In this document: piece by piece, positions 8,295 to 29,377 of the stretch
Layout: each line of letters begins with the position of its first letter
Position numbering within the stretch: position 1 is the first letter of the stretch
DNA from: an uncultured Clostridia bacterium
GTDB taxonomy: Bacteria > Acidobacteriota > Aminicenantia > UBA2199
NCBI GenBank assembly: GCA_964491915.1
Contig: CAZBHS010000027.1
Span: 2,694-66,693, forward strand
Reading direction: 5' to 3'
Length of the DNA: 64,000 nt
Made by a program: the position numbers and the translations under genes
The notes under the pieces: model-generated
What the model was told of the DNA's origin: nothing
Databases searched by the model: none
The model's input: only the letters and a program-made list of their open reading frames with translations

Positions 8295-8305
8295 ATACAA
8301 TATAG

Positions 8306-8498
8306 TGGTAATTGAAATGATGAGAAAAACAGAAATTCTAGTAAATATCGCGGTAGCTGCCGGATGGGACGGCAACTTCAGCGTTCGTTCATTTCAATCT
8401 GACCGAGTAACTTTTATTAACAGAACACTTTCCTATTGGGGTGGGAAAAGTGATAGATAAAAGGGGGGGATGGCAGTAAGCTATCCTCCCCCTTTTGT
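8306..8498 (+). ncRNA. candidate sigma-54-dependent short transcript (~190 nt): structured sRNA, or mRNA for a 47-codon ORF (8317-8460)
   Basis: It is bounded by the sigma-54 promoter and a hairpin terminator. ATTGAAATGA (8311-8320) is perfectly complementary to TCATTTCAAT (8389-8398), a 10-bp long-range helix. The ORF reads MMRKTEILVNIAVAAGWDGNFSVRSFQSDRVTFINRTLSYWGGKSDR and has no convincing Shine-Dalgarno, unlike most genes here. Confidence 0.35.
8463..8498 (+). terminator. Rho-independent terminator
   Basis: GGGGGGGAT (8463-8471) pairs with ATCCTCCCC (8483-8491), including one G-U pair, with an 11-nt loop. It is followed by CTTTTGT. Confidence 0.6.
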
Positions 8499-8634
8499 AT
8501 CAAAAGGGGTAGTCAGCAATTCCAAACTTTAAGATAACCGACTTGTATTTCAAATCAAGATAACAATTTTTGGTATCCTATTACAAAAAAATGTCACAAA
8601 CGCTTGAGGATTGTTTTTTGGAGGGAAGGGAGAA

Positions 8635-14219: not shown

Positions 14220-14248
14220 TTGACAAATTTTCAGAAATCCTGTAGAAT
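14220..14248 (+). promoter_or_regulatory. sigma-70-type promoter of GWxTD module 1
   Basis: TTGACA (14220-14225), 17-nt spacer, TAGAAT (14243-14248). AGAGG lies before the ATG at 14265. Confidence 0.6.
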
Positions 14249-14264
14249 CACATTATAGAGGTAT

Positions 14265-16355
14265 ATGATGAACGAATTCACAAAACGATCTAATTCAATT
14301 ATTACTTTATTAATAATCCTGGCTTTGAGTGTCACTTTACTACCGGGGAAAACCAAAGAAACGGATTTACCCGAGAAATATCGCAAATGGTTGACTGAAG
14401 ATGTCACCTACATAATTACTCCGCTTGAAAAAAAGGTATTTCTTGAGTTGGAAACCGCGAAAGAGCGGGATCTCTTTATAGACGCTTTTTGGAAAAACAG
14501 GGATCCCAACCCAAACACTCCGGAAAACGAATTCAAAATCGAGCATTACAAGCGCATGCAATATGCCACCCTAAACTTTGGTAGAGGCACACCGACAAAA
14601 GGTTGGCGAACAGAAATGGGCAAAATGTATATCATATTAGGAATGCCCAACGCAATCAACCGCTATGAAAACGATACGGAAATATATCCGACAATTGTGT
14701 GGTTTTACCAGGGATTCGCCAAATATGGCCTTCCCGATGCGTTTAGCGTTGTGTTTTTTAAAAAATACGGGGCGGGAGATTACCTCCTCTACAGTCCTAT
14801 CAAGGACGGCCCGCAAAGCCTTTTAATTCATTATATGGGAGATCCTAAAGATTATGTGGCGGCTTACGACAAACTCAATTACATTGAACCGGATGTCGCG
14901 AAAATATCTCTGTCTCTCATTGAGAGTGAACGCCGATTAACCATGTCCCCCTCTATCTCTTCAGAAATTTTGATTACTAAAAAGATCGCCGAGACTCCCA
15001 CAAAAAAAGTCAATGATACATACGCAAGTAAATTATTGAAATACAAAGAATACATCGAGAGCGACTATTCGGTAAACTATGTGGACAGTAGCTCCATGGC
15101 TCAGGTTCTTCGGAGTAATTCCGGGGCGTACTATGTGCACTATTTATTGGAGCCCAAAAAACTCACCCTGGAACAATACGATGATATGTTCTATTCCAAC
15201 CTTGAGATCGATTGCAGCGTCATCGATGAAGAGACGAACATGACTGTTTACCAGTTCAATAAAACCGTCCCCATTAAATTGGAGCGGGAGCAAATGGAAA
15301 AAATTCAATCAAAATTATTTAGCTTCCAATCCTATCTGCCATTGATCGAAGGTCGCTACATAATAAATCTGTTATTTAGAAATAAAGTATCCAAGGAATT
15401 CGCTTCAATGGAAAAACATGTCGTGATCCCCTCTTACGATATTACCAAACCCACTATCAGCCCGCTCATTTTGGCTAACCGGATAAAACGATCACCACAG
15501 AATCTCGATAAGAAAAAAGCCTTCGTATTCAATGATGTGCAGTTATCGCCATCCCCTCGTAACGACTTTTCCACCAGGGATACGATCTACCTCTATTATC
15601 AATTGGAGGGGCCGAAAGAACAAATCGCCAATGGGAACATTAAATATTCTATTTACAAAGACGCCAAAGAAATCTATTCCCGCCAGAAAAAACTGAAGGG
15701 CTATGATACCGGGCAACAGATCATGGAGGAGTTCCCCCTCGCAGGAAATGTCCCCGCCTACTATAAACTCCGTGTGTCCTTATATGGCCCCACAAACAAT
15801 TTCATAACGCTTCAGGAATCGGATTTCTATATTTCACCCCTATCCCAACTCCCAAGACCCTGGGTCGTATCTCTATCTGAAAACCTTGATGACGCAGGCT
15901 TGTTCAACATTCTTGGTATCCAGTATTTCAACAAGAAAGAATATAAAAAAGCGTTTGCGCTATTGGAGAGAGCGTACAATAATAAGCCGCTCAATCCCAA
16001 ATTCGCTCTCGATTATTGCCGTATTTTATTGTTAGCCCAAAAATACGAAAAAATAATAAAAATCGCATCGGTATTCACCACTACCGAAGACAAGAAAAAC
16101 TTTTCAGGCATGATGGGTGTGGCTTCAGAAAAACTCGGCCAGTATGAAGAGGCCATTCAGCACTACAAAAATTATCTTGAGTATCATGGAACAAACATCA
16201 AGATTCTTAACTCCATCGGCGCCAGTTATGCTCACTTAGGAGATATTGACGAAGCGCTGGTTGCACTGGAGAAATCCCTGGAGCTCGAGCCCAATCAAAA
16301 AAATCTCAAAGCACAGATTGAAGAATTGAAGAAAAAAAAACAATTAAACAAATAA
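14265..16355 (+). CDS. GWxTD-domain protein, long form with C-terminal TPR repeats (module 1, A)
   Basis: 696 aa with a signal peptide. Motifs are FWKNRDPNPNTPENEF and GWRTEMGKMYIILGMP (GWxTD-type). The C-terminal TPR is YEEAIQHYKNYLEYHGTN...ALEKSLELEPNQ. It is a paralog of 27225-29342. Confidence 0.85.
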   Translation: MMNEFTKRSNSIITLLIILALSVTLLPGKTKETDLPEKYRKWLTEDVTYIITPLEKKVFLELETAKERDLFIDAFWKNRDPNPNTPENEFKIEHYKRMQYATLNFGRGTPTKGWRTEMGKMYIILGMPNAINRYENDTEIYPTIVWFYQGFAKYGLPDAFSVVFFKKYGAGDYLLYSPIKDGPQSLLIHYMGDPKDYVAAYDKLNYIEPDVAKISLSLIESERRLTMSPSISSEILITKKIAETPTKKVNDTYASKLLKYKEYIESDYSVNYVDSSSMAQVLRSNSGAYYVHYLLEPKKLTLEQYDDMFYSNLEIDCSVIDEETNMTVYQFNKTVPIKLEREQMEKIQSKLFSFQSYLPLIEGRYIINLLFRNKVSKEFASMEKHVVIPSYDITKPTISPLILANRIKRSPQNLDKKKAFVFNDVQLSPSPRNDFSTRDTIYLYYQLEGPKEQIANGNIKYSIYKDAKEIYSRQKKLKGYDTGQQIMEEFPLAGNVPAYYKLRVSLYGPTNNFITLQESDFYISPLSQLPRPWVVSLSENLDDAGLFNILGIQYFNKKEYKKAFALLERAYNNKPLNPKFALDYCRILLLAQKYEKIIKIASVFTTTEDKKNFSGMMGVASEKLGQYEEAIQHYKNYLEYHGTNIKILNSIGASYAHLGDIDEALVALEKSLELEPNQKNLKAQIEELKKKKQLNK

Positions 16356-16365
16356 GAAGGAAAAT

Positions 16366-17310
16366 ATGAAACTAAAGCAATTCACGTCGCACGTTTCGAT
16401 TGTGATGCTGGGTATCATACTATTGTTCAACGCATGTGGCGGTGGTATGACGAAACTCGTCAAACAATTACCGCCCAAGGACCAGGATTTTCTTTCTACC
16501 GTAAGATACCTGATCACAAAACAGGAAAAAAAGATATTTCTCAATCTCGCCACCGAGCCAGAGCGTTCGGAATTTATCAAACATTTTTGGAAGCAGCGGG
16601 ATCCCGACCCGAACACTGAGGTCAATGAATATAAGGAAGAGTACCTCGACCGCATTGAAACATCCAATCAACTTTTTGGGAAGAACGGTTGGCTGGGCGA
16701 CCGAGGACGTGTTTTAATCATATTAGGACCGCCGGAAACCAAACGGGTGTACCCAACCGGCCTCACGATAAACACAATGTCCGGTGAACCGAGCATTTAC
16801 GAATACCCAACTGAAGTATGGTACTATGGCTACTACAATTTCCCGATCGTGTTTGTGGATCTCCACAGAAGCAATTCCTACCAATTAACCCCTCTCAGTT
16901 CTCAACATATCGCCACCATCAACAAAGCCGGAATGCTGTTCAGGCCAGTGATTCAGGAACTCGAGCGCCCTCTGGAATTCAACCTGAAAATTACAAAAAA
17001 TAGAGACGGTCAGCACATCATCCATGCGGAACTTCCATATAAAAATATAGTGTTTGTCGAAGCCGGAGATAAATACACCGCCGACCTGGTATTAAGTGTC
17101 AAGACGTATAGTCAGGATGGAAGAGAATTCCCCCCAATCACCAAAAAATACACACTATCTCTTACCAAAGACGACCTTCAAAAAAAAGCGGACCGATTCA
17201 CAATGTCGATCCCAATACAATTGAAATCCGGTGAATACAACATGGAGATTTCGATAGAAAATAAAAATGACAAACTCAAAACGACCAAAAAAATATCGTT
17301 TAAAAATTGA
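16366..17310 (+). CDS. GWxTD-domain lipoprotein, short form (module 1, B)
   Basis: 314 aa with a lipobox-like LLFNAC. Motifs are FWKQRDPDPNTEVNEY and GWLGDRGRVLIILGPPE. It starts 10 nt after gene A and is a paralog of 26270-27247. Confidence 0.85.
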   Translation: MKLKQFTSHVSIVMLGIILLFNACGGGMTKLVKQLPPKDQDFLSTVRYLITKQEKKIFLNLATEPERSEFIKHFWKQRDPDPNTEVNEYKEEYLDRIETSNQLFGKNGWLGDRGRVLIILGPPETKRVYPTGLTINTMSGEPSIYEYPTEVWYYGYYNFPIVFVDLHRSNSYQLTPLSSQHIATINKAGMLFRPVIQELERPLEFNLKITKNRDGQHIIHAELPYKNIVFVEAGDKYTADLVLSVKTYSQDGREFPPITKKYTLSLTKDDLQKKADRFTMSIPIQLKSGEYNMEISIENKNDKLKTTKKISFKN

Positions 17311-17377
17311 AATAATCTCAGAACGTTTGTTTAAGAGGCAAAAAAGAATGAGCTTCATATATATCAAACTTTATTAA

Positions 17378-18370
17378 ATGATTAAGGAGATGATGATGAT
17401 CAAAACACACAGAATTTTTACGGTTTTATTGACCATACTTGTAATAAGTATCCTCATTCCCGTATCTGCATTCGCCCAAACTGGACGTGGAACCGCTAGA
17501 CAGAAAATCGTAGTTGTAGACAAGAATGATCAACCAATCGAAGATGCAACCGTCACCCTCGAATTTCTAGATAGCCGCGATCCAATCATTAAGCACGAAA
17601 AAAAAACCAATGAAAAAGGTGAAGTCGTTTTCTTCGGTCTTGGTTACGGTAAATGGGAAATCACAGCCAGTTACCAAGACCTCACCCCTGAAACCAAAAA
17701 AGTGACGGTGAGCCAGGTCAATATTAACCAGGTTAAAACCATGAAGCTGGTAAAATCCGCTCAAAAAATCGCCGAGGAAAAATTGAAAACCGAGGCCAAT
17801 TTGGTGGCCCAGGGAAACCAGCTTTTTAATGAAGGCAAATATCCAGACGCCCTCGCCGCTTATCAAGAATTTTTGGTGAAAAATCCTGAATTTTATCAAT
17901 TGCACTTGAATATTGGTAATTGCCATAAGGAATTAGAGCAAAATGAACTTGCTATCGCTGAATTCAATAAAATCATCGAATCTGCGAAAGACGAGGAAAA
18001 AGACAAAGCGCTCAAAGCCAAAGCTCTTGCAGCCATCGGGGAAATTCACCTCAAAAACCAGGATACAGATAAAGCGACTGAATTTTTTCAGAAATCCATC
18101 GCCCTGAATCCCAAGGATGAAATCCTCGCTTACAATGTCGCCGAGATCTTTTTCGCCAGCAATAACAACGAAGAGGCAGTCAAATATTACGACCTAGCCC
18201 TTCAGATTAAACCAAAATGGGCTGAGTTGTACCTTAAAAAAGGCTACGTTTATATGAACATGGGTGACTTTCCCAAAGCGATCGAATCTTTGAAAAAATT
18301 CATCGAATTGGATCCACAAAATGCTCAGGTCCCGGTAGCGGAAGAAATCATAAAAAGTCTTCAACAGTAA
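17378..18370 (+). CDS. CarboxypepD_reg-like domain plus TPR protein (module 1, C)
   Basis: 330 aa with a signal peptide. The beta-sandwich segment is VVVDKNDQPIEDATVTLEF...NEKGEVVFFGLGYGKWEITA, followed by TPRs (GNCHKELEQNELAIAEFNKII; KKGYVYMNMGDFPKAIESLKKFIELDPQN). AAGGAG at 17384-17389 suggests the real start is one of the in-frame ATGs at 17390-17396. Confidence 0.8.
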   Translation: MIKEMMMIKTHRIFTVLLTILVISILIPVSAFAQTGRGTARQKIVVVDKNDQPIEDATVTLEFLDSRDPIIKHEKKTNEKGEVVFFGLGYGKWEITASYQDLTPETKKVTVSQVNINQVKTMKLVKSAQKIAEEKLKTEANLVAQGNQLFNEGKYPDALAAYQEFLVKNPEFYQLHLNIGNCHKELEQNELAIAEFNKIIESAKDEEKDKALKAKALAAIGEIHLKNQDTDKATEFFQKSIALNPKDEILAYNVAEIFFASNNNEEAVKYYDLALQIKPKWAELYLKKGYVYMNMGDFPKAIESLKKFIELDPQNAQVPVAEEIIKSLQQ

Positions 18371-18613
18371 CATCAGATAAGTATATATAAAAAGAGCAGG
18401 CAATAGAATCCCTATTGCCTGCGCCCCTCCAGAATGTCCCGTTTTGTGTACTCATCCCCACTCTATGTTGATATATCTATTATAGCGACCGCCACCCTGC
18501 CGACTTCCATATAAAATCATAAGTCCAAGAGTGCGGTATTCTAGAGATTCGCCGGTGTGTTTTATGTTGTCTTTGCTTAGGGAAAAATTTTCGAAGTATA
18601 CTCGGAAGGTTTT

Positions 18614-18651
18614 ATAAAAAAAAAGGCCCTCCCGGAGGAGGGCCCTTTTTT
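18614..18651. terminator. bidirectional Rho-independent terminator between convergent genes C and D
   Basis: An A-run, then GGCCCTCC-cgga-GGAGGGCC (18625-18644), then a T-run. Confidence 0.8.
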
Positions 18652-18692
18652 ATTTGAGAACTTTTCAGTTCTAGTTCGGTTTATAAACCTGA

Positions 18693-21671
18693 TTAGAACA
18701 TCAACTTAACGCCGATCCGGGCAGCCAGAGAGGCGAGATAGTTTCTCTCCATCTTGTACTGAGGATCGAGTTTTGCGCCTTTGGACTGTACCTGGCCAAC
18801 TGCGTCGAAGCCGTCAAAGATGACCTGTTCGTCAACATAGATAACGCCTTCGTTGTAAAGCTGATGGATTCTCTGAGCGATTTCGTTGTTGGTAACGTTA
18901 GTTACGTTTACATTGAACTGTAAGGTATATCTGTCGCTCAGTTTCATGTTATATTCCAGATAAGCATCGGCGGCCCACAGGAACGGAGTCCGATCCAGGT
19001 TGCCTCTGCCGTAAGGATACCATCCCTGCATACCGTTCAGATAAACTTCTGTCTGCACGGGGGTACCGGTCATTGCATAGGCGTTGAAACCAATGGTCAG
19101 ACCGAAATCCCAGGAATAGGCGCCATACAGTTTGAACTGTAAGCTTCTGTCGGTGGGCAGAGGACCGGTGTGGTCTTTGCCATCTTCAGTGTAGGTCATG
19201 AACCAGGCGTCAAAGTATCTTTCAACGCCGGGGTCTTTACGACCATGCTCATCGGAACTGGCCAAACCAGAGAAGTTACCTTTCAAGCTACTCCAGGTCA
19301 AGGACAAACCACCCAACCAGTTGTTGGAGAATTTTTTATCCAAATTGGCCTGAATGGAGTAGTAATTACGGATAGCTTTTGTGGCCTGGATACCCTGCGG
19401 CATAAGACCCAGAGCCTGCACTTCGTCATACTTCTGCTGGATCCAGTCGGAGCCGGGGTTGCCATTGAAATAAATTTCGCCTTCGGGATACTGCACACCG
19501 ATGTCTTCGATGGCGTTCACGATGGTGTTGTGTAAGAATCTTACGCTCAACGCAACATCTTCAGTAATTTTTTTCTGCACACCGAGGGTGTACTCATATT
19601 TGCTGAAGGGTTTCATGTTGGGCTGAGTGGTATCGAAGGACGGGATCCTCCAGTTACGGGATTCCAGATAGGGATTGCCATTAAAACTGTCAACCGGGTG
19701 TACATCTACGTTAGTATATGCATCCCAATTGGGGTTCTGAATGTTGTAATAATGGGAAACCCATTTGAATCCACCATAGGAACCTTCAGCCATGGCCAGC
19801 TTCATTACGTCATAATAGATACCGAAAGATCCGAAGATCTTGAGGTCGGAATCGCCAAAAACGTCATAGGCAAAACCAAGCCTAGGAGCAATTTTGTCGC
19901 CGAAACCAAACTGGATCGGCGGATCGGAATATTCAGGAAGGTCGCTGAAGGAGGGGATATCCTCTTTCTCAAACCTAACACCGGCGTTGACAGTCAATTT
20001 TTCTCCGACGGTCCACGCATCCTGAAGATAAACCGCAAAACGGTTGCTGGAAATGTTAGCAATCGAACCAAAAGGAGATCTTACTTCAACATAACCCAGG
20101 TCGGTACCAATGGTCTGACCGGAATTGGGGGATTCAAAATCGTCGCCCCAGTAAAAGCGGTTGTAGTTGTAAGGATAAGCGTCATCCTTATCAACACCGA
20201 CTTTCACATACTGAAAACCGATCTTCCATACATGTTCGCCAGCTAGATTCATGTAGTAGGTCAAATCAGCGGTGGCGGTCAACTTGTTGTTGATGTCTTT
20301 GTTGGTTGCGAAACCATCATAGTAACCATAGTTTGCATAATATAGGGGTACTACGGGGTTGCCATAACCAGAAGAAGCTCTCAAGTGATAGAAACGGGGG
20401 CCTTCGGGTTTGACGCCCTGGAGCCGGTTCGTTTTCCAGTAACCAGCGGTGACGTTCAACATCGCGTTGTTACCGATGGTATAATCCAGGCTACCACCAA
20501 CGGTGAAGCTGGGATATTCCCAAGTCTGGTCTTCCCAGGCTTTGAGACCGTTACCGGAACCATCCAACGGAGGCAGTTCGCCGTCTTCATTCCAGCTATC
20601 AATGGTACCACTCAAGGACAAACGCACATTATTGGCAACCTGACCAGTCAATTTCAAAGAACCGGCATAATAGGTGCGATCACGGGTGATTTCCCTATTC
20701 AGTTCGGGCGAAGCTGAAAAGACTCCGTCTCTGGTGGTTTTGTAGAACTTAGGCATAAAGCTGCCGAAGAACCACAATTTGTCTTTGATGATATAGCCGC
20801 CGATACCGATACCGGGCTCGATACGAGACCATGAATCTTCGGGATAGGTGACGTATTCAGCGATTGTGTCATCATAAGGATTGTGACGCAGAGTCGGAAC
20901 TGGGTCATAACCCAGGGCGCTACCGTCATAATACAACATGGCAGAACCGTGGAATTCATTACCACCACTACGGGTGATAACACTGATAACACCACCCATG
21001 GACCCACCGTATTCAGCAGCGTAACCGGAAGATTTTACCTGGACTTCTTCGATGAAGTCAAAGTTTACGTCCTGCCCGGATTCACCACTGAACAATGTGG
21101 TTGTGTCGACACCGTCTACGAAAAAGACATTTTCAGAACTACTTGCACCGTCAAACGAAATACCGCCGAGCTCTTCTTCATTGTTAACACCAGCAGAGGT
21201 GGTAACGATGGAGGTAAAGTTACGGCCTTTCGGTAATTTGGTGAAGGTTTCTTTGGTGATATTTACCGTGGTGGCACTCTTACGAACATCCAGAACGGGG
21301 GACTGTCCGGTGACGACGATCTCTTCACGGATAGCACCAGTCTGCATGATCACATTGATTTTAATGGTTCTACCGATATCAACCCTGATCTTTTCCCGTT
21401 TGATGGTTTTAAAACCTTCAAGACTAAAGGTGATGGTATAATCACCGGTGGGAAGAGCGAGCAACCGAAAGCCACCATTTTCATTCGATACTGTCGTACG
21501 GACACCAACCATGTTAGTACCAGTCGCTTCGATTGCTACGCCTGGGATAGCGGAGCCATCTTCGAGCACTACTGTTCCAATAACTTCACCTGTCTGCTCC
21601 TGAGCGAACATTGTACCGCCAAAGAGTAACGCAACAGCGAAGAACAAAACCAAACATTTTTTGTTAAACAT
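18693..21671 (-). CDS. Oar-like TonB-dependent outer-membrane barrel with N-terminal CarboxypepD_reg domain (module 1, D)
   Basis: 992 aa with a signal peptide. The CarboxypepD_reg segment is GTVVLEDGSAIPGVAIEA...NENGGFRLLALPTGDYTITFSLEGF. A plug-like region follows (VVTGQSPVLDVRKSATTVNITKETFTKLP), then a long beta-rich body. The C-terminal residue is Phe (GVKLMF). GGAGG lies before the ATG. Confidence 0.85.
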   Translation of the reverse strand: MFNKKCLVLFFAVALLFGGTMFAQEQTGEVIGTVVLEDGSAIPGVAIEATGTNMVGVRTTVSNENGGFRLLALPTGDYTITFSLEGFKTIKREKIRVDIGRTIKINVIMQTGAIREEIVVTGQSPVLDVRKSATTVNITKETFTKLPKGRNFTSIVTTSAGVNNEEELGGISFDGASSSENVFFVDGVDTTTLFSGESGQDVNFDFIEEVQVKSSGYAAEYGGSMGGVISVITRSGGNEFHGSAMLYYDGSALGYDPVPTLRHNPYDDTIAEYVTYPEDSWSRIEPGIGIGGYIIKDKLWFFGSFMPKFYKTTRDGVFSASPELNREITRDRTYYAGSLKLTGQVANNVRLSLSGTIDSWNEDGELPPLDGSGNGLKAWEDQTWEYPSFTVGGSLDYTIGNNAMLNVTAGYWKTNRLQGVKPEGPRFYHLRASSGYGNPVVPLYYANYGYYDGFATNKDINNKLTATADLTYYMNLAGEHVWKIGFQYVKVGVDKDDAYPYNYNRFYWGDDFESPNSGQTIGTDLGYVEVRSPFGSIANISSNRFAVYLQDAWTVGEKLTVNAGVRFEKEDIPSFSDLPEYSDPPIQFGFGDKIAPRLGFAYDVFGDSDLKIFGSFGIYYDVMKLAMAEGSYGGFKWVSHYYNIQNPNWDAYTNVDVHPVDSFNGNPYLESRNWRIPSFDTTQPNMKPFSKYEYTLGVQKKITEDVALSVRFLHNTIVNAIEDIGVQYPEGEIYFNGNPGSDWIQQKYDEVQALGLMPQGIQATKAIRNYYSIQANLDKKFSNNWLGGLSLTWSSLKGNFSGLASSDEHGRKDPGVERYFDAWFMTYTEDGKDHTGPLPTDRSLQFKLYGAYSWDFGLTIGFNAYAMTGTPVQTEVYLNGMQGWYPYGRGNLDRTPFLWAADAYLEYNMKLSDRYTLQFNVNVTNVTNNEIAQRIHQLYNEGVIYVDEQVIFDGFDAVGQVQSKGAKLDPQYKMERNYLASLAARIGVKLMF

Positions 21672-21710
21672 TAAACCTCCTCAAAATTTTGTGGATTGAG
21701 GTATAATACA

Positions 21711-21726
21711 AGCAATAATTTTGCCA
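21711..21726 (-). promoter_or_regulatory. sigma-54 promoter of the minus-strand barrel gene
   Basis: The minus strand reads TGGCAA-aatta-TTGCT with exact GG-N10-GC spacing. The -12 element is about 40 nt upstream of ATG 21671, with GGAGG in between. Confidence 0.65.
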
Positions 21727-21794
21727 AGCCCCTTCACTTTGTGAAACCTCTTAACAATTAGTTTTCACAATAGTAGAAAAAAATAAACCAAAAG

Positions 21795-21813
21795 TTTGGA
21801 TTCCACATCCAAA
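21795..21813. promoter_or_regulatory. palindrome TTTGGAT-tccac-ATCCAAA between the two divergent sigma-54 promoters
   Basis: Perfect 7-bp arms with a 5-nt spacer. It sits about 80 bp upstream of the minus-strand -24 and about 175 bp upstream of the plus-strand -24, which is a candidate activator-site position. Confidence 0.35.
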
Positions 21814-21976
21814 ATAACGGATCGCCTATTACGGGAATCTATTTTCCATTATATAAAGATTTGATATAATATGAAAGAAGTTGAACTCTATGCAGTAACC
21901 TATTAGTTGGGGTTCAGGGAAAACACAAATACTTTTTTACACTATTTTAGAATTGAAAGAGCAGGCCAACCGCATA

Positions 21977-21992
21977 TGGCACGACTTTTGCT
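21977..21992 (+). promoter_or_regulatory. sigma-54 promoter of the plus-strand barrel gene
   Basis: TGGCAC-gactt-TTGCT, a full consensus with GG at 21978-21979 and GC at 21990-21991. It is about 110 nt upstream of ATG 22102, which is preceded by AGGAGG. Confidence 0.7.
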
Positions 21993-22101
21993 AAATATTT
22001 TAGCTATGTATTTAAAGAAATGTGCTAAATTTTATAGAGCCAGGCCCAATTGGCAAAAAAAGCTTTATAGGATCTAGCCTAAGTTTAGTTAGGAGGTATT
22101 T

Positions 22102-24909
22102 ATGCTAAAACGTATTTCCATTGTAATTGCTGCTGTATTCTTCCTGGTTTCAGTTAATTATGCACAGTTGAACCAGACAGGAATGATTAGCGGTATCGTA
22201 AATTCCCCAGACGGAACCCCGATGCCAGGAGTCACCGTCGTAATCAAATCACCGGCGTTGGTTCTTCCTGAGATGACAACTATTTCCTCTGAAAATGGAA
22301 GATATCGGTTTCCCTCCCTTGCTCCCGGTACTTATGAAGTAAGCTTCATACTCGAAGGAATGAACACTCTAGTCCACAAAGGCATTGTTGTTAGCGTTGG
22401 CGTTACCAGCCGTGTCGATGTGACGATGGAACTTCAGTCCATTCAGGAAAGTGTCGTGGTTGAGGGACAGTCTCCCACGGTTGACCGTCAGAGCACAACC
22501 AGAGCCGCTAACCTGGATTCTGAGTTTCTGGATTCAATCCCCGCATTGAGAAACCTGGGTACCTATTTCAATATGACCCCCGGTGTCACCAGCGATTCAG
22601 TACATGGAAGCTCCGTTCGCGACAGCGCTTACAACCTTGATGGCGTCAATCTGGCCGACCCCACAGTCGGAACCCAGGGTGTCTTCTTCGGAATGGACAT
22701 CATGGAAGAGGTCTCCGTTCAGAGCGGCGGTCTCTCGGCTGAATACGGTAGTGTCAGAGGCGCGGTCATCAACGTCGTCTCCAAATCCGGTGGAAACAAA
22801 TTCAGCGGAACCGCCAGCGTCTATTACAGACATGAAAGTCTGCAGTCGGACAACACAACCGGTACTCCGTTAGAAGGCGAATTCAGCGGTTACAAGTACG
22901 AGGTAGAACCGGGAATCACCCTCGGCGGCCCCATTGTAAAGGACAAATTGTGGTTTTTTACCAACCTCAGTTTCAACAAGAGAGAGCAGTTCATCTCCGG
23001 TTATCCTTACGACGCCCCCGAAGGCCAGGAAATCCCTTATGATGATTACCGTCCCTATCCTTACATCAAGTTGACTTTCCAGCCCAACCAGGCCAACAAG
23101 TTCATCTTGTCGTACAATTATTCCGACATCACGAGAAATCACCGTGGAGCCAGCCGTTATATGCTGGAAGAGTCCACCCGCACCCAGGAAACACCGACTC
23201 ACGTTTTTAATGCGCATTGGACCCGCTCCTTCGGTAGTAATTTCTTCATGAACTTCAAAGCCGGCGGTTACGTGAGCGACTTCAACATGCTCACCAAAAC
23301 CGCCGCTTTACCCACCTACGAATATCTGAATAACCGTCAGACCGGTAACTATGGTTATGACGATTTAAACCAGAGGGACCGTCTGCAGATTAACGTCGAC
23401 GGCACCATGTTTGTGGATGACCTCGCAGGCGCCCACGAGCTAAAATTCGGCGGCGAATTCCAGTATGGTTGGACCGGCCGTCAGCTCAATTTCCCCGGCG
23501 TCGCAAGCCCGGAGTATCCCGGTTTGAACGCTTACTCCGTATATCTGTGGGACGGCGAACCTTTTTATGCGACATTCTATGCTCCTTACGACGTAAAAGA
23601 GCAGATGATGAATGTATCGCTGTTCGTTCAGGATACATGGTCTATCACCAACAACCTCACCTTGAACCTGGGCCTCCGTTATGAATACCAGAAAGGCATG
23701 ATTCCCGTACAGGGAGTCGATGCAGGCCCGATGGAGCTCTTTGGTTATTCCTACTTCAGGAATGTCGATGAGACTATCACCGCCAACACCTGGAACACAT
23801 TGGCGCCCAGGGCCGGCTTCATCTATGATCTTTTCAGCGATGGCACGACCTTATTGAAAGGTAGTTACGCCAGATATTACATCGCCAACATTACCCAGTG
23901 GTTCTCCGGTATCAATCCTAACGGATTCGTCAGCTATAGCGGCTACATCTATCCCGACCTCAGTCTCCAACAGCTCGCGGGATTGGGCGTACCCACTCCG
24001 GAAGACCTGGCCCAGTTGGGATACAACGATTATGATCTCGAAGCTCCTTATGTAGACGAGGTCACAATCGGTATCGAAAAAGAACTCTGGGAAGATTGGT
24101 CCATCGGTCTCCGTTACATCAAAAAATGGGACAAAAAACTCATCGAAGATGTCAACTCCAAAGCCTTGGATATCGACGCCTTGATGGACAATGGCGAACT
24201 CATCTGGACCAACTGGGAACCCCTTACCGTCACCGATCCTTATGACGGCAACTCGGTCACTTTTTGGCAAGAGAAGCAGACTTTCAACCCCAAATATTAC
24301 GTAGTGAACGCGCCTGGCGCCACAAGAGATTACGATGGTATCGAGTTCACCTTGAACAAACGTTACTCTAACGGATGGTCTTTGAACGCATCCTACGTCT
24401 TCCAGAATTCCCGTGGTTTGATCGGAACCGACTTCGACGACAGTTGGGGCGGCACCGGTTACTACGACAATCCCAACAACCATATCTACGCTGTTGGTAG
24501 ATTCCCGTTGGAAAGACGTCACCAGGTTAAAATCCAGGGTCTGGTCAAAGGTCCTTGGGGAGTCAACCTGAGTGGTTACTTCAGATACCTCTCCGGTCAG
24601 AGATACACCCGGGCGGTTCGCTCGTTGGATCTCGGACTGCAGCTCAGCCATGATGATGAAACCATCTATGCTGAGGAAAGAGGTTCTAGAGGTTATCCGG
24701 GCCTCGCCATCCTCGACTTGAGGGTGGAGAAAGCTTTCAAACTCGGCCCCGTTACGTTGCGCGCCTTCGTTGACATTTTCAACGTATTCAATAGCGGCGT
24801 AGCCACTGAATACTACACAATTTCCAGTAATCCTGGTATTGAATTCGAGACTATGGAAAGCATTTCCGATCCGAGAATTTTCAGATTGGGCGCCAAGATC
24901 GAATTTTAA
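22102..24909 (+). CDS. Oar-like TonB-dependent outer-membrane barrel with N-terminal CarboxypepD_reg domain (module 2, D')
   Basis: 935 aa with a signal peptide. The CarboxypepD_reg segment is GIVNSPDGTPMPGVTVVIKS...SENGRYRFPSLAPGTYEVSFILEGM and the plug-like region is VVEGQSPTVDRQSTTRAANLDSEFLDSIP. The C-terminal residue is Phe (GAKIEF). It is a paralog of 18693-21671. Confidence 0.85.
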   Translation: MLKRISIVIAAVFFLVSVNYAQLNQTGMISGIVNSPDGTPMPGVTVVIKSPALVLPEMTTISSENGRYRFPSLAPGTYEVSFILEGMNTLVHKGIVVSVGVTSRVDVTMELQSIQESVVVEGQSPTVDRQSTTRAANLDSEFLDSIPALRNLGTYFNMTPGVTSDSVHGSSVRDSAYNLDGVNLADPTVGTQGVFFGMDIMEEVSVQSGGLSAEYGSVRGAVINVVSKSGGNKFSGTASVYYRHESLQSDNTTGTPLEGEFSGYKYEVEPGITLGGPIVKDKLWFFTNLSFNKREQFISGYPYDAPEGQEIPYDDYRPYPYIKLTFQPNQANKFILSYNYSDITRNHRGASRYMLEESTRTQETPTHVFNAHWTRSFGSNFFMNFKAGGYVSDFNMLTKTAALPTYEYLNNRQTGNYGYDDLNQRDRLQINVDGTMFVDDLAGAHELKFGGEFQYGWTGRQLNFPGVASPEYPGLNAYSVYLWDGEPFYATFYAPYDVKEQMMNVSLFVQDTWSITNNLTLNLGLRYEYQKGMIPVQGVDAGPMELFGYSYFRNVDETITANTWNTLAPRAGFIYDLFSDGTTLLKGSYARYYIANITQWFSGINPNGFVSYSGYIYPDLSLQQLAGLGVPTPEDLAQLGYNDYDLEAPYVDEVTIGIEKELWEDWSIGLRYIKKWDKKLIEDVNSKALDIDALMDNGELIWTNWEPLTVTDPYDGNSVTFWQEKQTFNPKYYVVNAPGATRDYDGIEFTLNKRYSNGWSLNASYVFQNSRGLIGTDFDDSWGGTGYYDNPNNHIYAVGRFPLERRHQVKIQGLVKGPWGVNLSGYFRYLSGQRYTRAVRSLDLGLQLSHDDETIYAEERGSRGYPGLAILDLRVEKAFKLGPVTLRAFVDIFNVFNSGVATEYYTISSNPGIEFETMESISDPRIFRLGAKIEF

Positions 24910-24945
24910 TCCAATTCTGAAACTGTAGTAACATTCAAATAAAAA

Positions 24946-24977
24946 GGGGACGCTTTAACCAGCGTCCCTTTTTTTTA
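24946..24977 (+). terminator. Rho-independent terminator
   Basis: GGGACGCT-ttaacc-AGCGTCCC followed by T9, about 35 nt after the stop. Confidence 0.85.
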
Positions 24978-25140
24978 TCCAATTATTTGGATCATCACTC
25001 CCCACCAACCCCCCACTGAATATTCCCTCATATTAGGAAGAACTCCCCGCTGATCTGGACCACCCGCATGATGATCTCTCAAGATATAAGAGCGCTCTTA
25101 GTGAGGAGTATTAGGAGGATCGGTGAGAAGGTGATGGGTA

Positions 25141-25167
25141 GTTAGTGTGGCCACTGGCCACACTAAC
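25141..25167. repeat. perfect 12-bp-stem hairpin GTTAGTGTGGCC-act-GGCCACACTAAC
   Basis: A perfect inverted repeat 29 nt beyond the stop of the minus-strand gene 25196-26161. No U-run follows on that strand, so it is not a canonical terminator. Confidence 0.5.
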
Positions 25168-25195
25168 ATTCGATATTTTCTATTCTAGGTTTTAC

Positions 25196-26161
25196 TTACT
25201 TTAAATCTTTTATTAAGCTCTTTATTGTATCTGCCTGGGGATCATCCGGAGCTATTTCCACGAACTTTTCCATATAGGAAACAGCTTTGACGGTATCGCC
25301 TTTATTCAGATAGGCATATCCGAGTTTCAAGTAAGATTTCGGCCAATCGGGCTTGATTTTGATAGCCATCTCATAATACTTGACAGCCTCATCCACTTTA
25401 TTCATGTTGAAAAGGATTTCCGCGACATTGTAGGCAAGCGCATGATCGGTGGGATCGATTTCCATTGATTTCTTGAAATTGGCTTCGGCTTCCGCGAATT
25501 TGTCCTGGGCCATGAAAGCTTCGCCAAGACTGGCGTAAACCCTTGCGGAAATGGTATTGATTTCTTTGGTTTGTTCAGCTTCCGCCGCCAATCCCGCCAA
25601 TACTTTTTTGTACTCTGCTATCGATTCGGGGTATTTACGGAGCCGGAAATAGCAATTGCCTATATTGATTCCCACCTTATAGAGCAATGGATTTTTTTCA
25701 CGGAATTTTAAAAACATATCGAGAGCGCCTTTATAGTTATCCTGTTTAAACATTTGATTGCCCTGCAAAAATTCCGACCTTGAGCCATCATCCTTGATAC
25801 CCACAGGCGTCTCTTCAGAAATCTTTTCCATTTCAATTCTCTGCTTCGGGTTTTTTCCAGCCTGACTTAACTGTATCGGCATGATAGTGCGAACATATCC
25901 CTCTTTTTCTGCAGTCACCCGGTACGGGCCGTTGGCGAAGCCATAGAATCCCCACTTTCCCTTCTCATCGGAAACAGTCTCCATGCTAAATTTATACTTC
26001 AAGGATTCCAACAAAATTTTGACCCCGCCCACAGTATTACCATCCTGATCCTGCACAATACCGGTCACCCGCCCCACGCCTCTTCCTTCCTGGGACAATA
26101 CCAACGAAGATCCAGCAAATACAATCATTATCAATACGAAAAAAAGCGAGAGTTTTTTCAT
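25196..26161 (-). CDS. CarboxypepD_reg-like domain plus TPR protein (module 2, C')
   Basis: I set the start at ATG 26161 (MKKLSLFFVLIMIVFAGSSLVLS, AGGAGG upstream) rather than track start 26233. The beta-sandwich segment is GIVQDQDGNTVGGVKILLES...DEKGKWGFYGFANGPYRVTA. The TPRs (GNCYFRLRKYPESIAEYKKVL; KLGYAYLNKGDTVKAVSYMEKFVEIAPDD) are colinear with 17378-18370. Confidence 0.8.
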   Translation of the reverse strand: MKKLSLFFVLIMIVFAGSSLVLSQEGRGVGRVTGIVQDQDGNTVGGVKILLESLKYKFSMETVSDEKGKWGFYGFANGPYRVTAEKEGYVRTIMPIQLSQAGKNPKQRIEMEKISEETPVGIKDDGSRSEFLQGNQMFKQDNYKGALDMFLKFREKNPLLYKVGINIGNCYFRLRKYPESIAEYKKVLAGLAAEAEQTKEINTISARVYASLGEAFMAQDKFAEAEANFKKSMEIDPTDHALAYNVAEILFNMNKVDEAVKYYEMAIKIKPDWPKSYLKLGYAYLNKGDTVKAVSYMEKFVEIAPDDPQADTIKSLIKDLK

Positions 26162-26269
26162 CTTATTCCTCCTAATTATCAGGTTAATCATTCTGATCAT
26201 AACCACACATTCTACCAAAATTCCCTGGTACAATCAATGAACCGGGACTCCACAATAGAGCCGCGGATA

Positions 26270-27247
26270 TCAATGGGCTTTTATTTCATATACCTTTCTG
26301 GTCTTAATATTCGAATTCAAATCTGTCAAAACCGCATCCACAGTCACATTACCTTCCGGCCGGGGAAGCGACACACTCATTGCCAAAGGAGCGGAACGTT
26401 TCAGTAATTCCTCTTTAGAAAATTCAAACGAGACTTGCTTCGAAATTTTCTTGATCTTTTCAGTTTTAGAGAAAACAACAAGATCAAGATTCAAACGGGC
26501 AACCATCTTGCCGTCCCTTCCCTCGAATTCCAGATGGTTCGGTTCCACCTGAACATTGAATTCCTGCGTCGAGGTATCATAGCTATAATCGAAGGATAAT
26601 TCTCCGAATTCAAATGTTCTCCCTTCTGAATTGTTGATTTGATTGTATTTCATCCGCTCTATCATATCAAAAGTCCGAAGCGGCGTCGCCAGGATATCCA
26701 ACCGGTAAAAGCCGTACCCATCCTTATCGATAAACCGGAAAAACATGCCTCCGGCGCCGGCGTAGGTATAATCGGAGTTGACCGAATCAGTCATTCCATA
26801 GAACCAATGGATAATGCGCCCCTTCAACATGGGGTCCTCGGTATAGACATTGGGATCGATCCGGTCCGGGGGTCCAAGAACCAAATATATTCTACCCCGG
26901 TCGGTTTCCCATCCTGGGCGCCCTGCTTCCCGGAGGTATTCGGACACGAACTCGAATCTCCGCTCGATCTCCTCCTTGAATTCATTTTCTTCGGTCAAGG
27001 GATCGGGATCACGAATTTCCCAAAAATAGCGGATAAACTCCCGGCGCCGTTCAGGAGTTCCAAGATTTTTAAATATCTTGCGCTCATTTTTTGTGAACAA
27101 ATACCGTGCCCGCTGGTAGAAATCTTCACTGGCGGGGTCCAATGCAGCCCGCCGGGACACGCCGCATTGAATAGTAAACATCGCTAACACTAGAGAAACA
27201 AGCAGGTTGCGCACCAGGAAAAATTTAGTCTGTTTTAGTCTCCTCAT
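26270..27247 (-). CDS. GWxTD-domain lipoprotein, short form (module 2, B')
   Basis: 325 aa with a signal and Cys (MFTIQCG). Motifs are FWEIRDPDPLTEENEF and GWETDRGRIYLVLGPPD. It overlaps the end of gene A' by 23 nt. Confidence 0.85.
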   Translation of the reverse strand: MRRLKQTKFFLVRNLLVSLVLAMFTIQCGVSRRAALDPASEDFYQRARYLFTKNERKIFKNLGTPERRREFIRYFWEIRDPDPLTEENEFKEEIERRFEFVSEYLREAGRPGWETDRGRIYLVLGPPDRIDPNVYTEDPMLKGRIIHWFYGMTDSVNSDYTYAGAGGMFFRFIDKDGYGFYRLDILATPLRTFDMIERMKYNQINNSEGRTFEFGELSFDYSYDTSTQEFNVQVEPNHLEFEGRDGKMVARLNLDLVVFSKTEKIKKISKQVSFEFSKEELLKRSAPLAMSVSLPRPEGNVTVDAVLTDLNSNIKTRKVYEIKAH

Positions 27248-29342
27248 CGAGTCTCCTCAACAATTCGGTAATCTCCGGCTGATTGGGATTGATTTTTAGC
27301 GAAGCGGTAAACGCCTTATGCGCCTCGCCTTTCTGTCCCACCTGGAGCAAAGCGGCGCCTAGCGCATTTAACACCGTCGTATCACTATCATACTCTGCAT
27401 TCGCCTTTAACAAGTTTTCCACCGCCAAATCATAGAAACCTTTGCGGAAATACGCCTTTCCTTTATAGGCATAATAATCGAATGCAGCTTCGGGAATGCC
27501 TTTCATGCCCTCGATAACCTCGATAACACGGTCATACTTTTTCGCCCGGAAAAGAAACGCCGTGTACACTTTCACCAATTCCGGGAAGCGTGGGTTCATT
27601 GACAGAGCCTTTTGGTAATTGGCTTCGGCCAATGTGTCGTTTTTAAGACTCTCATACTGCCTCCCCAGCATCATGTACAACAAGAATTTATTTTGCCTGG
27701 ACAGTTTTTTGGAAGCGGACGGCGGATGGGAAATGACTCCGAGGGGCGAAATGGAGAAATCGCTCTCCGCCGTACCCAATACGTTGCCGTTCTGATCCAT
27801 GATCTTGGCGGTCATCAAGTACGTTCCGGTCCCCGGATTTTCTATATCGGTCTTGAAACAATATAAATCCGTTTCCTCAGGGAATTCAAACGGATAGACC
27901 TTACGGTACTCTTTGTAACCATGTTGATTTTTCACTTCCAACGCCACGTTAAGCTTGCCCTTGTAGGTTCCCTTTCGAACGCAAAAATACGAGAACAACA
28001 ATTCCCTCGTGCCGAATTCCCGGCGCGGATCGATCATCACCCGGTCATCCACAAAATTGTATGATGCGAAGAACAACTGGTTGGCGCGGCTAATCTGATA
28101 GCTGATGAGCGGTTGCCAAACCTTTGGCAGGCCTGGAGTCGGGGATTCTACCTTCACATTTCTCTCATAATAGGTTATTTCCCTATTTACTGAATTCTCG
28201 ATGATGGCGCTGAATTCGAATTCGCCGTCGATCGCGGGGAAATAATCGGCGATCACCAGCCCATGAGATAAAGAGCCCTCCAATTCCTCTTTTGAATAAT
28301 AAAAGGGATAGTTCTTGGAGTATTGAAAAATAACGGAACCCTCTTTCTTCAAGAGGACTGTGAGTTGATAACTGAAATAAAACTTATCCTTTTTTTCCGA
28401 ATAATCCACGGACAACCGCTCAGGCAAAATCGAGAAATGAATCATATTGAGCTTTAGGATCGGATCCGGAAACACCGCCAAATCGCAGCGGCTGTTAATA
28501 TAATTTGTGGTAACACTCACATCCACCACCCCCTTGAAATTCAGAAAGTTCCTGGCATAGGTGGCATTGATGGCACGCTTCGGTAACTCATAAATCCTGG
28601 ACATCAAGATGGGGGATTGCAACGACGGGGTGAAGTTATAGAGCTCTTCGCCGGGAATCAAACTGAGAGACACTTCCGCCACTTGAGGATTCAATTCTCT
28701 GAGTTTTTGATAAATTTTAGCGTAATCGTTATCTTCAAACTCCCCGGTATGCCTCACCAGCAAATTTCCCGGCCCGTCCACAGTCGGAATATACAATTTA
28801 TAATCCCCCGCTCCGGACTTCTTATAGAACGCGACCCTGAATGCGGTCGGAAGCCCTATTTCAGGATTCCCATAATATTCCCATATTTCCACCGGGTAGA
28901 TCCCCCTGGTAATCACTTCGTTGCGACTGACAGGAGGGCCAAGAAGTATCCAAATTCTTCCCCGATCCGTTTTCCAGCCGGGTAGAGGGGAACCGAAACC
29001 AAAATAATATGACGCATAATTGAACCGCTTCATGTGCTCTTCTTCGAATTCATTCTCAGGCGTCCCCTTACTGGGGTCACGCTGATTCCAGAACATTGAG
29101 ATAAATGAATCCCGGTCGCGGTTATTGGTCAAATCCAAAAAGACCTTGCGCTCAAGGGGAGTGCTGATATGAGCCACAAGATCCCACCATGTTTGATATT
29201 TCTCATCCAGGCCCTTAAGTATCGAATTTGCCGAGCCATTGGTTCCGGCAGCGGACAGGAATGAACCGGCCCCGGGAAAATTTATCACAAGAATCCCAAA
29301 CAATACTAGTATCACCAATCTTATACACGTTCTGTTTTTCAT
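27225..29342 (-). CDS. GWxTD-domain protein, long form with C-terminal TPR repeats (module 2, A')
   Basis: 705 aa with a signal peptide. Motifs are FWNQRDPSKGTPENEF and GWKTDRGRIWILLGPPV. The C-terminal TPR is LAEANYQKALSMNPRFPE...AHKAFTASLKINPNQ. Confidence 0.85.
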   Translation of the reverse strand: MKNRTCIRLVILVLFGILVINFPGAGSFLSAAGTNGSANSILKGLDEKYQTWWDLVAHISTPLERKVFLDLTNNRDRDSFISMFWNQRDPSKGTPENEFEEEHMKRFNYASYYFGFGSPLPGWKTDRGRIWILLGPPVSRNEVITRGIYPVEIWEYYGNPEIGLPTAFRVAFYKKSGAGDYKLYIPTVDGPGNLLVRHTGEFEDNDYAKIYQKLRELNPQVAEVSLSLIPGEELYNFTPSLQSPILMSRIYELPKRAINATYARNFLNFKGVVDVSVTTNYINSRCDLAVFPDPILKLNMIHFSILPERLSVDYSEKKDKFYFSYQLTVLLKKEGSVIFQYSKNYPFYYSKEELEGSLSHGLVIADYFPAIDGEFEFSAIIENSVNREITYYERNVKVESPTPGLPKVWQPLISYQISRANQLFFASYNFVDDRVMIDPRREFGTRELLFSYFCVRKGTYKGKLNVALEVKNQHGYKEYRKVYPFEFPEETDLYCFKTDIENPGTGTYLMTAKIMDQNGNVLGTAESDFSISPLGVISHPPSASKKLSRQNKFLLYMMLGRQYESLKNDTLAEANYQKALSMNPRFPELVKVYTAFLFRAKKYDRVIEVIEGMKGIPEAAFDYYAYKGKAYFRKGFYDLAVENLLKANAEYDSDTTVLNALGAALLQVGQKGEAHKAFTASLKINPNQPEITELLRRLDEETKTD

Positions 29343-29348
29343 GAATTA

Positions 29349-29377
29349 ATTATATTCAATAGGATGAATCAAGTCAA
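29349..29377 (-). promoter_or_regulatory. sigma-70-type promoter of GWxTD module 2 (leaderless geometry)
   Basis: The minus strand reads TTGACT (29377-29372), a 17-nt spacer, then TATAAT (29354-29349). The A of ATG 29342 is 7 nt after the -10 hexamer, and there is no Shine-Dalgarno. Confidence 0.6.

Follow-up and report, generated by a model that had tools for sequence, protein, structure and literature searches.

The window analysed here, 64,000 nucleotides (nt) of contig CAZBHS010000027.1 from an Aminicenantia genome (assembly GCA_964491915.1), carries a mirror-image array of eight genes for predicted envelope proteins: GWxTD-family proteins, proteins that join a CarboxypepD_reg domain to tetratricopeptide repeats (TPRs), and Oar-class TonB-dependent-type barrels. 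The genes of the first copy are designated A to D and those of the second copy A' to D', and L-numbers (L003, L088 and so on) are the labels of the loci with which they were compared. The eight genes lie where the original prediction had placed them, and the list of open reading frames (ORFs) of the window departs from it only at the start of C'.

14265-16355, plus strand: A, exported protein of 696 amino acids (aa) with a GWxTD core, a helical linker, two beta-sandwiches and C-terminal TPRs
16366-17310, plus strand: B, predicted lipoprotein of 314 aa with a GWxTD core and one immunoglobulin (Ig)-like beta-sandwich; starts 10 nt past A
17378-18370, plus strand: C, exported protein of 330 aa with a CarboxypepD_reg beta-sandwich and TPRs
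18693-21671, minus strand: D, Oar-class TonB-dependent-type outer-membrane barrel of 992 aa
22102-24909, plus strand: D', Oar-class barrel of 935 aa, paralogue of D
25196-26161, minus strand: C', CarboxypepD_reg and TPR protein, paralogue of C; ORF open up to a TTG at 26233
26270-27247, minus strand: B', paralogue of B and predicted GWxTD lipoprotein; its first 23 nt are shared with the end of A'
27225-29342, minus strand: A', GWxTD and TPR protein, paralogue of A that founds an orthogroup of its own

In the case of C', the listed ORF (25196-26233, minus strand) begins at the upstream TTG, and the ATG at 26161 is the likelier start because it opens a signal peptide (MKKLSLFF).

Each gene of the first copy has a diverged counterpart in the second. 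BLASTP alignments over essentially the full length of the proteins give 31% identity for A/A' (E 2e-96), 28% for B/B' (E 9e-27), 32% for C/C' (E 2e-57) and 27% for D/D' (E 3e-60). Every pair is an old paralogue at the protein level, as had been proposed, and the motif strings quoted at the time for A/A', B/B' and C/C' are recognisable in the alignments. The sole inverted DNA match between the two halves is 53 nt at 72% identity inside D/D', so the duplication must be old, and a recent inverted duplication of DNA was rejected. Judged from its sequence, the region is a mirror-image arrangement of two ancient paralogous copies of a conserved, predicted envelope module. Each copy consists of two transcription units, an A-B-C operon and a separate D gene, that converge on a terminator-like hairpin.

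Protein families of the module

The assignment of the A- and B-type proteins to the GWxTD family was borne out by profile searches, with all four above cut-off for TIGR04514 (105.9 bits for A, 97.9 for B, 87.5 for B' and 89.3 for A'; cut-off 28) and PF20094 (29-42 bits; cut-off 26.9). The motif after which the family is named is canonical in A' (GWKTDRG) and B' (GWETDRG) and varies in A (GWRTEMG) and B (GWLGDRG), the G and the W being invariant. The GWxTD core is common to A and B, in which it is 36% identical, and A and A' have C-terminal TPRs by profile search. Orthologues of A at about 50% identity are abundant in Aminicenantes.

A signal sequence ending in cysteine had been noted in B and B'. 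This cysteine is kept in 46 of 47 aligned members of the B family, mostly within a canonical lipobox (commonly L-[GAST]-[SAG]-C), and it is on this ground that B is predicted to be a lipoprotein; the context is less canonical in the window copies (FNAC in B, TIQC in B'). The alignment of the A family has no signal-end cysteine of the B-family kind.

An AlphaFold model of B (predicted local distance difference test, pLDDT, 84) has a six-helix GWxTD core at residues 27-120, a small sheet at 125-164, a helix, and a C-terminal Ig-like sandwich. The model of A residues 1-540 (pLDDT 90; predicted template-modelling score 0.77) has the same core, followed by the helical linker and two beta-sandwiches. 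No solved relative of the GWxTD core was found among the best 50 Foldseek matches of the two models; since the core was not searched on its own, weak matches to it could be hidden below these 50. A sequence search of the PDB with B returned zero matches.

The GWxTD family is large, and its function and partners are undescribed in the literature searched, in which no paper with GWxTD, TIGR04514, PF20094 or IPR030959 was found. A profile of the four window domains recovered 11,398 clusters at 50% identity (E <= 1e-3) from a representative library; the best 150 matches are close relatives only, and the search gives the size of the family and no distant contexts. Some library proteins of 780-1400 aa (P0294, P0295 and P0305) contain two or three GWxTD stretches, and could have arisen by natural fusion of A- and B-type genes or by run-on in gene calling.

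The barrels D and D' were taken to combine a CarboxypepD_reg extension, a plug and a barrel ending in Phe, and profile scores, the D-D' alignment and the C-termini all agree with this. The extension (PF13620) scores 59.6 bits in D (residues 30-109) and 60.3 bits in D' (residues 29-110), against a cut-off of 32.3. The plug domain (PF07715) scores 30.5 bits in D, above the cut-off of 23.9, and 16.8 bits in D', below it; residues 123-234 of D' align with the plug of D, including the block EEV.V.S.G.SAEYG...G.I.V..(K/R)SGGN.F.G. The barrel itself is matched by OMP_b-brl_4 (PF25183; 120 bits in D, 170.3 bits in D') and by TonB_dep_Rec_b-barrel (PF00593; 48.7 bits in D', and 24.9 bits in D, just under the cut-off of 27). 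Both proteins end in Phe (...GVKLMF in D, ...GAKIEF in D'). Between extension and plug lie the TonB-box-like motifs EEIVVTG (D) and ESVVVEG (D'), which we take to resemble classical TonB boxes. By predicted architecture, D and D' belong to the Oar subclass of TonB-dependent transporters. A PDB sequence search with D gave zero matches, and searches of D and D' against NCBIfam gave matches far below the cut-offs and no close named transporter. Among close relatives the barrels evolve slowest, with 92% identity for D and 94% for D' compared with 80-84% for A.

For C and C', the predicted beta-sandwich followed by TPRs resolves in profile searches into CarboxypepD_reg and TPR. PF13620 scores 38.8 bits in C' and 32.0 bits in C, just under the cut-off of 32.3, with the domain of C at residues 36-116; TPR matches are strong in C, and TPRs are also found in C'. 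The possibility that the beta-sandwich of C is a close copy of the extension of D was set aside (BLAST E = 0.047).

Other genes of the window encode related domains. The sole TonB-related gene is that of a TonB_C-domain protein of 398 aa (2965-4161, minus strand), in a row with genes for an extracytoplasmic function sigma factor (4594-5160, minus strand) and a probable anti-sigma factor (4145-4597, minus strand, no Pfam match). A Na+/alanine symporter (6057-7865, plus strand) has an N-terminal signal or transmembrane segment and a CarboxypepD_reg domain (residues 50-122). The fusion is kept in the close relatives L009 and L089, and a second symporter of the window (53250-54599) does not have the domain. 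With the same periplasmic domain as the barrel extension, the symporter could share a docking partner with the barrel.

Promoters and other regulatory features

The following regulatory features accompany the eight genes.

14220-14248, plus strand: sigma-70-like promoter of A-B-C (TTGACA-17-TAGAAT), 11 of 12 positions, 17 nt before A; consensus match only
29349-29377, minus strand: sigma-70-like promoter of A'-B'-C' (TTGACT-17-TATAAT), 11 of 12 positions; consensus match only
21711-21726, minus strand: putative sigma-54 -24/-12 promoter of D, TGGCAAAATTATTGCT, 40 nt before D
21977-21992, plus strand: putative sigma-54 -24/-12 promoter of D', TGGCACGACTTTTGCT, 110 nt before D'; conserved in L089 and L009
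21795-21813, no strand assigned: candidate activator-binding palindrome TTTGGAT-N5-ATCCAAA (TTTGGATTCCACATCCAAA) in the D/D' spacer
18625-18644 (plus strand) and 18639-18627 (minus strand): GC-rich hairpin between C and D with T-runs on both strands, bidirectional and terminator-like; pattern match only
18422-18396, minus strand: second terminator-like site between C and D; pattern match only
24947-24968, minus strand: terminator-like hairpin between D' and C'; pattern match only

A split in promoter type, with sigma-70-like sites for the A-B-C genes and sigma-54 sites for the barrel gene, had been predicted for both copies, and is upheld at the level of promoter motifs. The two best sigma-70-like matches in the 13.9-29.8 kb interval are the sites that immediately precede A and A'. 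For the strict sigma-54 pattern TGGCA-N6-TTGCW the window has five matches where 0.23 would be expected, and two of the five are correctly oriented before D and D'. At other Aminicenantes loci, the strict motif is present in 39 of 57 distinct regions upstream of D-type genes, the background being 0.009 per equivalent stretch. The D-type genes that lack it are mainly preceded by a C-type gene of the same orientation. The remaining strict matches in the window lie at 1710-1725 (minus strand), inside the 5' end of the ORF at 767-1891, and at 8279-8294 and 41275-41290 (both plus strand), with no obvious downstream gene near either of the latter two.

The palindrome is perfect, and lies in the most conserved block when the D/D' spacers of the four loci with this junction are aligned. 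In L009, L089, L019, L022 and L054, five loci that represent different lineages, a TTGGAT-N3-5-ATCCAA sequence also stands 85-87 nt before the -24 element, with spacing as in the window. Such a position is suggestive of an activator site, for which the palindrome is a candidate.

Distribution and arrangements of the module

The linkage of the genes was surveyed in one genome per GTDB species, yielding 79 loci, all from Aminicenantes/Acidobacteriota. The ORFs of these loci were classified against the eight window proteins, and 26 loci with complete 10-kb flanks formed the full-flank set. Within this set, a C-type gene is present at 24 of 26 loci and a D-type barrel at 23 of 26. The order and orientation of the window, with A-B-C on the plus strand and D on the minus strand, recurs in L003-L008 with unrelated flanks, which include tRNA synthetases, MurJ and creatininase genes, and ankyrin and M1 peptidase genes.

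Across Aminicenantes the module recurs in at least five arrangements. For instance, an arrangement typical of Saccharicenans is without B, and consists of A, C and a gene for an alkaline-phosphatase-superfamily and TPR protein, with D convergent. In other cases all genes lie on one strand, in the order C-D-A or D-A-B-C. The invariant theme is a GWxTD protein together with a CarboxypepD_reg-bearing protein, and several genomes carry two GWxTD loci. In addition to a module, L007 has two more GWxTD and TPR genes (1865-8558, minus strand), each followed by the gene of a small OMP_b-brl-type barrel of ~375 aa, one with an SH3_3 match.

The second copy belongs to a lineage of its own. Members of the A' orthogroup are 42-51% identical to A', against 31% between A' and A, and occur in three layouts: an extended one, A'-B'-x-(GDSL-like and TPR)-C'-(phosphatase and TPR) with D' convergent; a minimal convergent A'/D' pair; and an A'-C' pair. 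The neighbours of A' orthologues score higher against the second copy than against the first (201 versus 99 bits for B' and B, 301 versus 199 for C' and C, and 898 versus 168 for D' and D), and the neighbours of A orthologues show the reverse pattern, with the first copy as the better match. These lineage-matched scores therefore indicate two ancient, co-inherited module lineages. The original prediction had argued from retention of the whole module through duplication that its four partners work together; co-inheritance of both copies as sets agrees with this, with the correction that B is dispensable in many lineages.

The full octet is kept in L088, with identities to the window proteins of 62% for A, 75% for D, 66% for D', 59% for C' and 46% for B', and with different upstream genes. 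The junction of A-B-C, convergent D and divergent D' is found in L089 and L009 as well, and in most other Aminicenantes the two modules lie at separate loci. The mirror-image octet is a trait of one sub-lineage, for which ancestral and secondary juxtaposition are both possible. The palindromic order thus need not mark the site of the duplication.

To extend the survey beyond AMINICENANTES, metagenomes were scanned with a back-translated GWxTDRGxxY motif. This gave 120 loci with a GC content of 0.28-0.73, on short contigs of mixed, unclassified origin. A real GWxTD ORF was found by hidden Markov model search in 115 of 121 tested loci (the 120 and L093). The most divergent B-like match is in L093, where the genes of a CarboxypepD_reg and Plug barrel, a 1186-aa protein of unknown type and a small OMP_b-brl/DUF5723 protein, and lastly two GWxTD genes, stand in this order on one strand. 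A CarboxypepD_reg N-terminus is encoded by 32 of 160 genes flanking a GWxTD gene, compared with 6 of 304 non-adjacent genes of the same loci (odds ratio 12.4, p = 6e-11), and by 28 of 78 (36%) of the downstream neighbours. In a Pfam batch of 118 neighbours, CarboxypepD_reg ranks first (28) and HlyD-type adaptors second (10). The expected enrichment of GWxTD genes beside Oar-like barrels and CarboxypepD_reg genes in relatives is thus seen both in Aminicenantes and in metagenomes.

The main case in the metagenomes is one high-GC operon type, in which a GWxTD protein of ~570 aa is followed, after a gap of 5-10 nt, by a CarboxypepD_reg protein of ~580 aa. In the latter, a signal peptide is followed by a CarboxypepD_reg domain that is a homologue of the extension of D (hhalign probability 98.7%), a plug is absent, and the C-terminus (...RGG(L/V)SFxF) is a typical outer-membrane beta-signal. 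The genes at 3273-4991 and 5001-6734 of L211 are an example of such a pair. Full Oar-like barrels stand beside GWxTD and TPR genes in L117, L121, L130, L138, L167, L172 and L189. The L172 barrel has a strict sigma-54 motif 93 nt upstream; before the high-GC GWxTD-barrel operons, sigma-54 promoters were not found, with two weak matches in 23.

Two further kinds of gene were observed near this operon type. A sensor kinase of ~950 aa, with PDZ, seven-transmembrane (7TM), GAF, PAS and HisKA/HATPase parts, accompanies 9 of 26 high-GC operons of GWxTD and plug-less barrel genes, many of these loci being incomplete (L191 2276-5125, L211 253-3105, L171 9878-12655, L196 5192-9673 and L175 11081-14008). 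In L196 the gene of an NtrC-type sigma-54 activator follows that of the kinase. A HlyD-type membrane-fusion protein gene followed by an ATP-binding cassette (ABC) ATPase gene is divergent from the operon in L211 (7271-9464), L189 (7568-9873) and L149 (5265-7484).

Two genes of the window outside the octet are possible accessories.

29515-30552, plus strand: possible accessory TPR protein, divergent from A'
36384-38498, minus strand: possible accessory lipoprotein with an alkaline-phosphatase-superfamily ('Sulfatase') domain and TPRs, 7 kb from A'

Homologues of the first, at 34-35% identity, stand divergently beside D in L005, L006, L012 and L017, which links it weakly to the module, in 3-4 species. 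The second scores 158 bits for PF00884 in a Pfam search, and homologues with PF00884 and TPRs, at 37-40% identity, are encoded at 41 of the 89 GWxTD loci from Aminicenantes, where their genes often separate C from D (for instance L023 13245-15500 and L090 17479-19947). It was considered as evidence of sulfated-glycan use, and this was rejected: the C/S-x-P-x-R active-site motif is absent from the window protein and four homologues, which have T-L-P-(S/A)-H in its place. Lacking the formylglycine motif, the protein is a member of the PF00884 superfamily that is probably no sulfatase. Its Thr-type site is presumably similar to that of envelope phospho-transferases.

Peptidase genes also stand beside modules in unrelated contexts (window 31062-33461, L007 18606-20549 and L091 8474-9982). 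The kinds represented are M1 (twice), M61, 19 nt upstream of an A' orthologue, and S9/DPPIV in L007. Their presence could be chance in a proteolytic lineage.

Possible function and competing explanations

A, B, C and D very probably form one functional unit, and from their linkage we infer that they make up the outer-membrane and periplasmic 'machine' previously envisaged. A specific mechanism, TonB-energised uptake with import as its direction, is favoured tentatively, at somewhat less than an even chance. The helpers A, B and C would be made constitutively from the sigma-70-type operon and would reside at the outer membrane or in the periplasm. Upon a signal, the barrel gene would be turned on by an enhancer-binding protein whose probable site is the TTGGAT-N5-ATCCAA palindrome, and the helpers would then dock on the barrel through contacts of their TPR and GWxTD parts with CarboxypepD_reg domains. 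The resulting complex might serve uptake of a large or scarce substrate, with the two copies used for different substrates or under different conditions. Import is favoured because nearly all characterised TonB-dependent transporters import (PMC11658791), because several diverged modules occur per genome, because hydrolase-TPR fusions recur inside modules and peptidases (M1, M61, S9) beside them, which are hints in this direction, and because a nutrient-responsive sigma-54 switch is plausible.

The closest known counterpart of the barrels is Oar of Myxococcus xanthus, a TonB-dependent transporter required for secretion of the protease PopC (PMC6434023). The earlier comparison with Oar, which had been linked there to protein export, holds for D and D' in that the domain order matches: like D and D', Oar has a signal peptide, a PF13620 extension, a plug that carries a motif like the TonB box, and a large barrel with Phe as its last residue (PMC6434023). 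In Myxococcus, however, oar adjoins exbB, exbD and tonB, and GWxTD or TPR partners are undescribed there, whereas in the window the module is not flanked by Ton genes, and the barrel comes with three dedicated helper genes and a putative sigma-54 promoter.

In outline, the module can be likened to SusCD and TbpAB, as an analogous and non-homologous system. With the SusC/SusD 'utilisome' it would share a barrel with a CarboxypepD_reg-like extension, lipoprotein or helical-repeat partners, many diverged modules and recruited hydrolases (PMC11658791). In the window the helper genes run towards the barrel gene, in contrast to susD, which comes after susC, and the fold of the GWxTD partner is unrelated; no SusD/RagB Pfam match was found in A, B, C or their primed copies at E <= 0.01. 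With TbpA/TbpB and Slam-dependent surface lipoproteins the likeness lies in a TonB-dependent barrel with a dedicated lipoprotein, and in TPR-bearing periplasmic or outer-membrane factors. The window differs in having no DUF560 barrel, and B has no similarity to TbpB-type lipoproteins. Slam-like helpers were considered and discarded, the TPR_Slam matches being below cut-off and reflecting generic TPR similarity. A literature search on Aminicenantes and TonB returned nothing relevant.

Several observations weigh against uptake by a conserved, TonB-energised complex. The sole studied Oar-class protein, that of Myxococcus, exports a protease (PMC6434023). No exbB or exbD gene, and no gene for an enhancer-binding protein (Sigma54_activat), is present among the scanned ORFs of the window; the cognate activator may be encoded elsewhere. 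The plug-less ~580-aa partners cannot be TonB-driven importers, and the role of GWxTD proteins may therefore be barrel partnership in general. The genome survey is taxonomically narrow, all of it being from Aminicenantes, and since most CarboxypepD_reg neighbours in the metagenomes represent one recurrent operon type, the association amounts to ~6-8 independent arrangements and not dozens. The motif-less 'sulfatase'-TPR accessory weakens the analogy with glycan-utilisation loci, as it would better fit a phosphoester-acting, possibly envelope-modifying enzyme than a sulfatase. The PDZ kinase and the NtrC-type activator hint at a role in sensing or signalling. Foldseek searches of the A and B models against the PDB yielded generic Ig/macroglobulin (MG)-like sandwiches only, with template-modelling scores <= 0.27 (C-terminal domains of transglutaminases, Ig-like domains of GH2, arrestin/VPS26 and complement MG domains), and gave no functional clue.

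An alternative to uptake is export or surface display in the manner of Oar, whereby the barrel would move GWxTD/TPR proteins or other periplasmic cargo outward, or expose lipoprotein B. The exact Oar architecture of D and D', with extension, TonB-box plug and barrel, is in its favour (PMC6434023), as are the 5-10 nt gaps that couple GWxTD genes to plug-less CarboxypepD_reg barrels in the way of partner-plus-translocator pairs, and the HlyD-type adaptors with ABC ATPases that adjoin the high-GC operon type. However, only one TonB-dependent exporter is known, and in Myxococcus the extension is dispensable for secretion, which proceeds with no GWxTD or TPR partner (PMC6434023). The loci showed no candidate cargo that bears a recognisable secretion tag, and the placement of helpers and barrel under different promoters is unexpected for an obligate cargo-translocator pair. 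Export is, on balance, unlikely.

Lower still in probability is a role in envelope structure, biogenesis or signalling, in which GWxTD/TPR proteins tether, assemble or monitor barrels through CarboxypepD_reg domains and no substrate is moved. In one variant, a two-component or sigma-54 system might be informed of the status of the barrel. The C-termini of barrels can be recognised by periplasmic PDZ domains, as exemplified by DegS, and a PDZ-7TM kinase occurs with 9 of 26 GWxTD-barrel operons, next to an NtrC-type activator in L196; this link is seen in no Aminicenantes locus, however. The range of barrels found with GWxTD proteins (plugged, plug-less and small OMP_b-brl), the Thr-type alkaline-phosphatase-superfamily site of the accessory and the position of modules among housekeeping genes are also consistent with such a role. 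On the other side, D keeps a plug and a TonB-box-like motif, implying energised transport, and several diverged modules per genome fit diversification of substrates better.

That GWxTD genes fall beside Oar-like barrels and TPR proteins by coincidence, such proteins being so common in Acidobacteriota (the window alone has extra CarboxypepD_reg or TPR copies at 6057-7865, 29515-30552 and 36384-38498), is very improbable and effectively refuted by the full-flank linkage, by fixed position and orientation across species while flanks vary, by the internal control (20% of flanking genes against 2%), by lineage-wise partner scores and co-inheritance, and by the 5-10 nt gaps that indicate coupling.

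The uptake reading concerns the barrel as a transporter; a second proposal concerns the GWxTD domain itself. Numbers of GWxTD and CarboxypepD_reg proteins are 2:2 in the full module and 1:1 in the A'/D' pair, the A'-C' pair and the high-GC operon, and TPR tails recur on different heads (GWxTD, CarboxypepD_reg, phosphatase-like and GDSL-like). These regularities suggest, as speculation, that GWxTD binds CarboxypepD_reg and that TPRs are a common scaffold. It is doubtful, if conceivable, that GWxTD is a dedicated binding partner of the CarboxypepD_reg extension and so defines a widespread, undescribed barrel-plus-partner class. Such a class would extend, with equal doubt, from two-gene systems of GWxTD and plug-less barrel, sometimes with a PDZ kinase and a sigma-54 activator, up to the TonB-dependent octet.

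Few outer-membrane proteins of Acidobacteriota and related bacteria are as numerous as Oar-class barrels, of which only one has been studied. What is new here is a predicted TonB-type barrel with dedicated accessories from an uncharacterised partner family, a solid lead from comparative genomics with a mechanism that is proposed. The partnership of GWxTD protein and barrel provides the first testable handle on both the GWxTD family and the CarboxypepD_reg extension: it names candidate partners, a conserved sigma-54 switch together with the site where its activator may bind, and a reduced form with two genes that culturable soil Acidobacteria may possess. If the module acts in uptake, it would be a counterpart of the SusCD 'utilisome' outside Bacteroidota, built from unrelated parts. 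If it acts in export or signalling, it would add to the few roles other than import that TonB-type barrels have, and if GWxTD docks the extension, the docking of partners or signalling across the envelope would become a concrete function of the Oar/SusC-type extension.

Elsewhere in the window, a 9.5-kb stretch of low GC content (0.37-0.39) at 43446-53049 lies between 104-nt direct repeats (43446-43549 and 52946-53049) that are 91% identical. The right repeat overlaps a tRNA-Thr gene (53003-53076, minus strand), and a tyrosine integrase is encoded at 51224-52240 (minus strand). By these features the stretch looks like an integrated mobile element with att sites.

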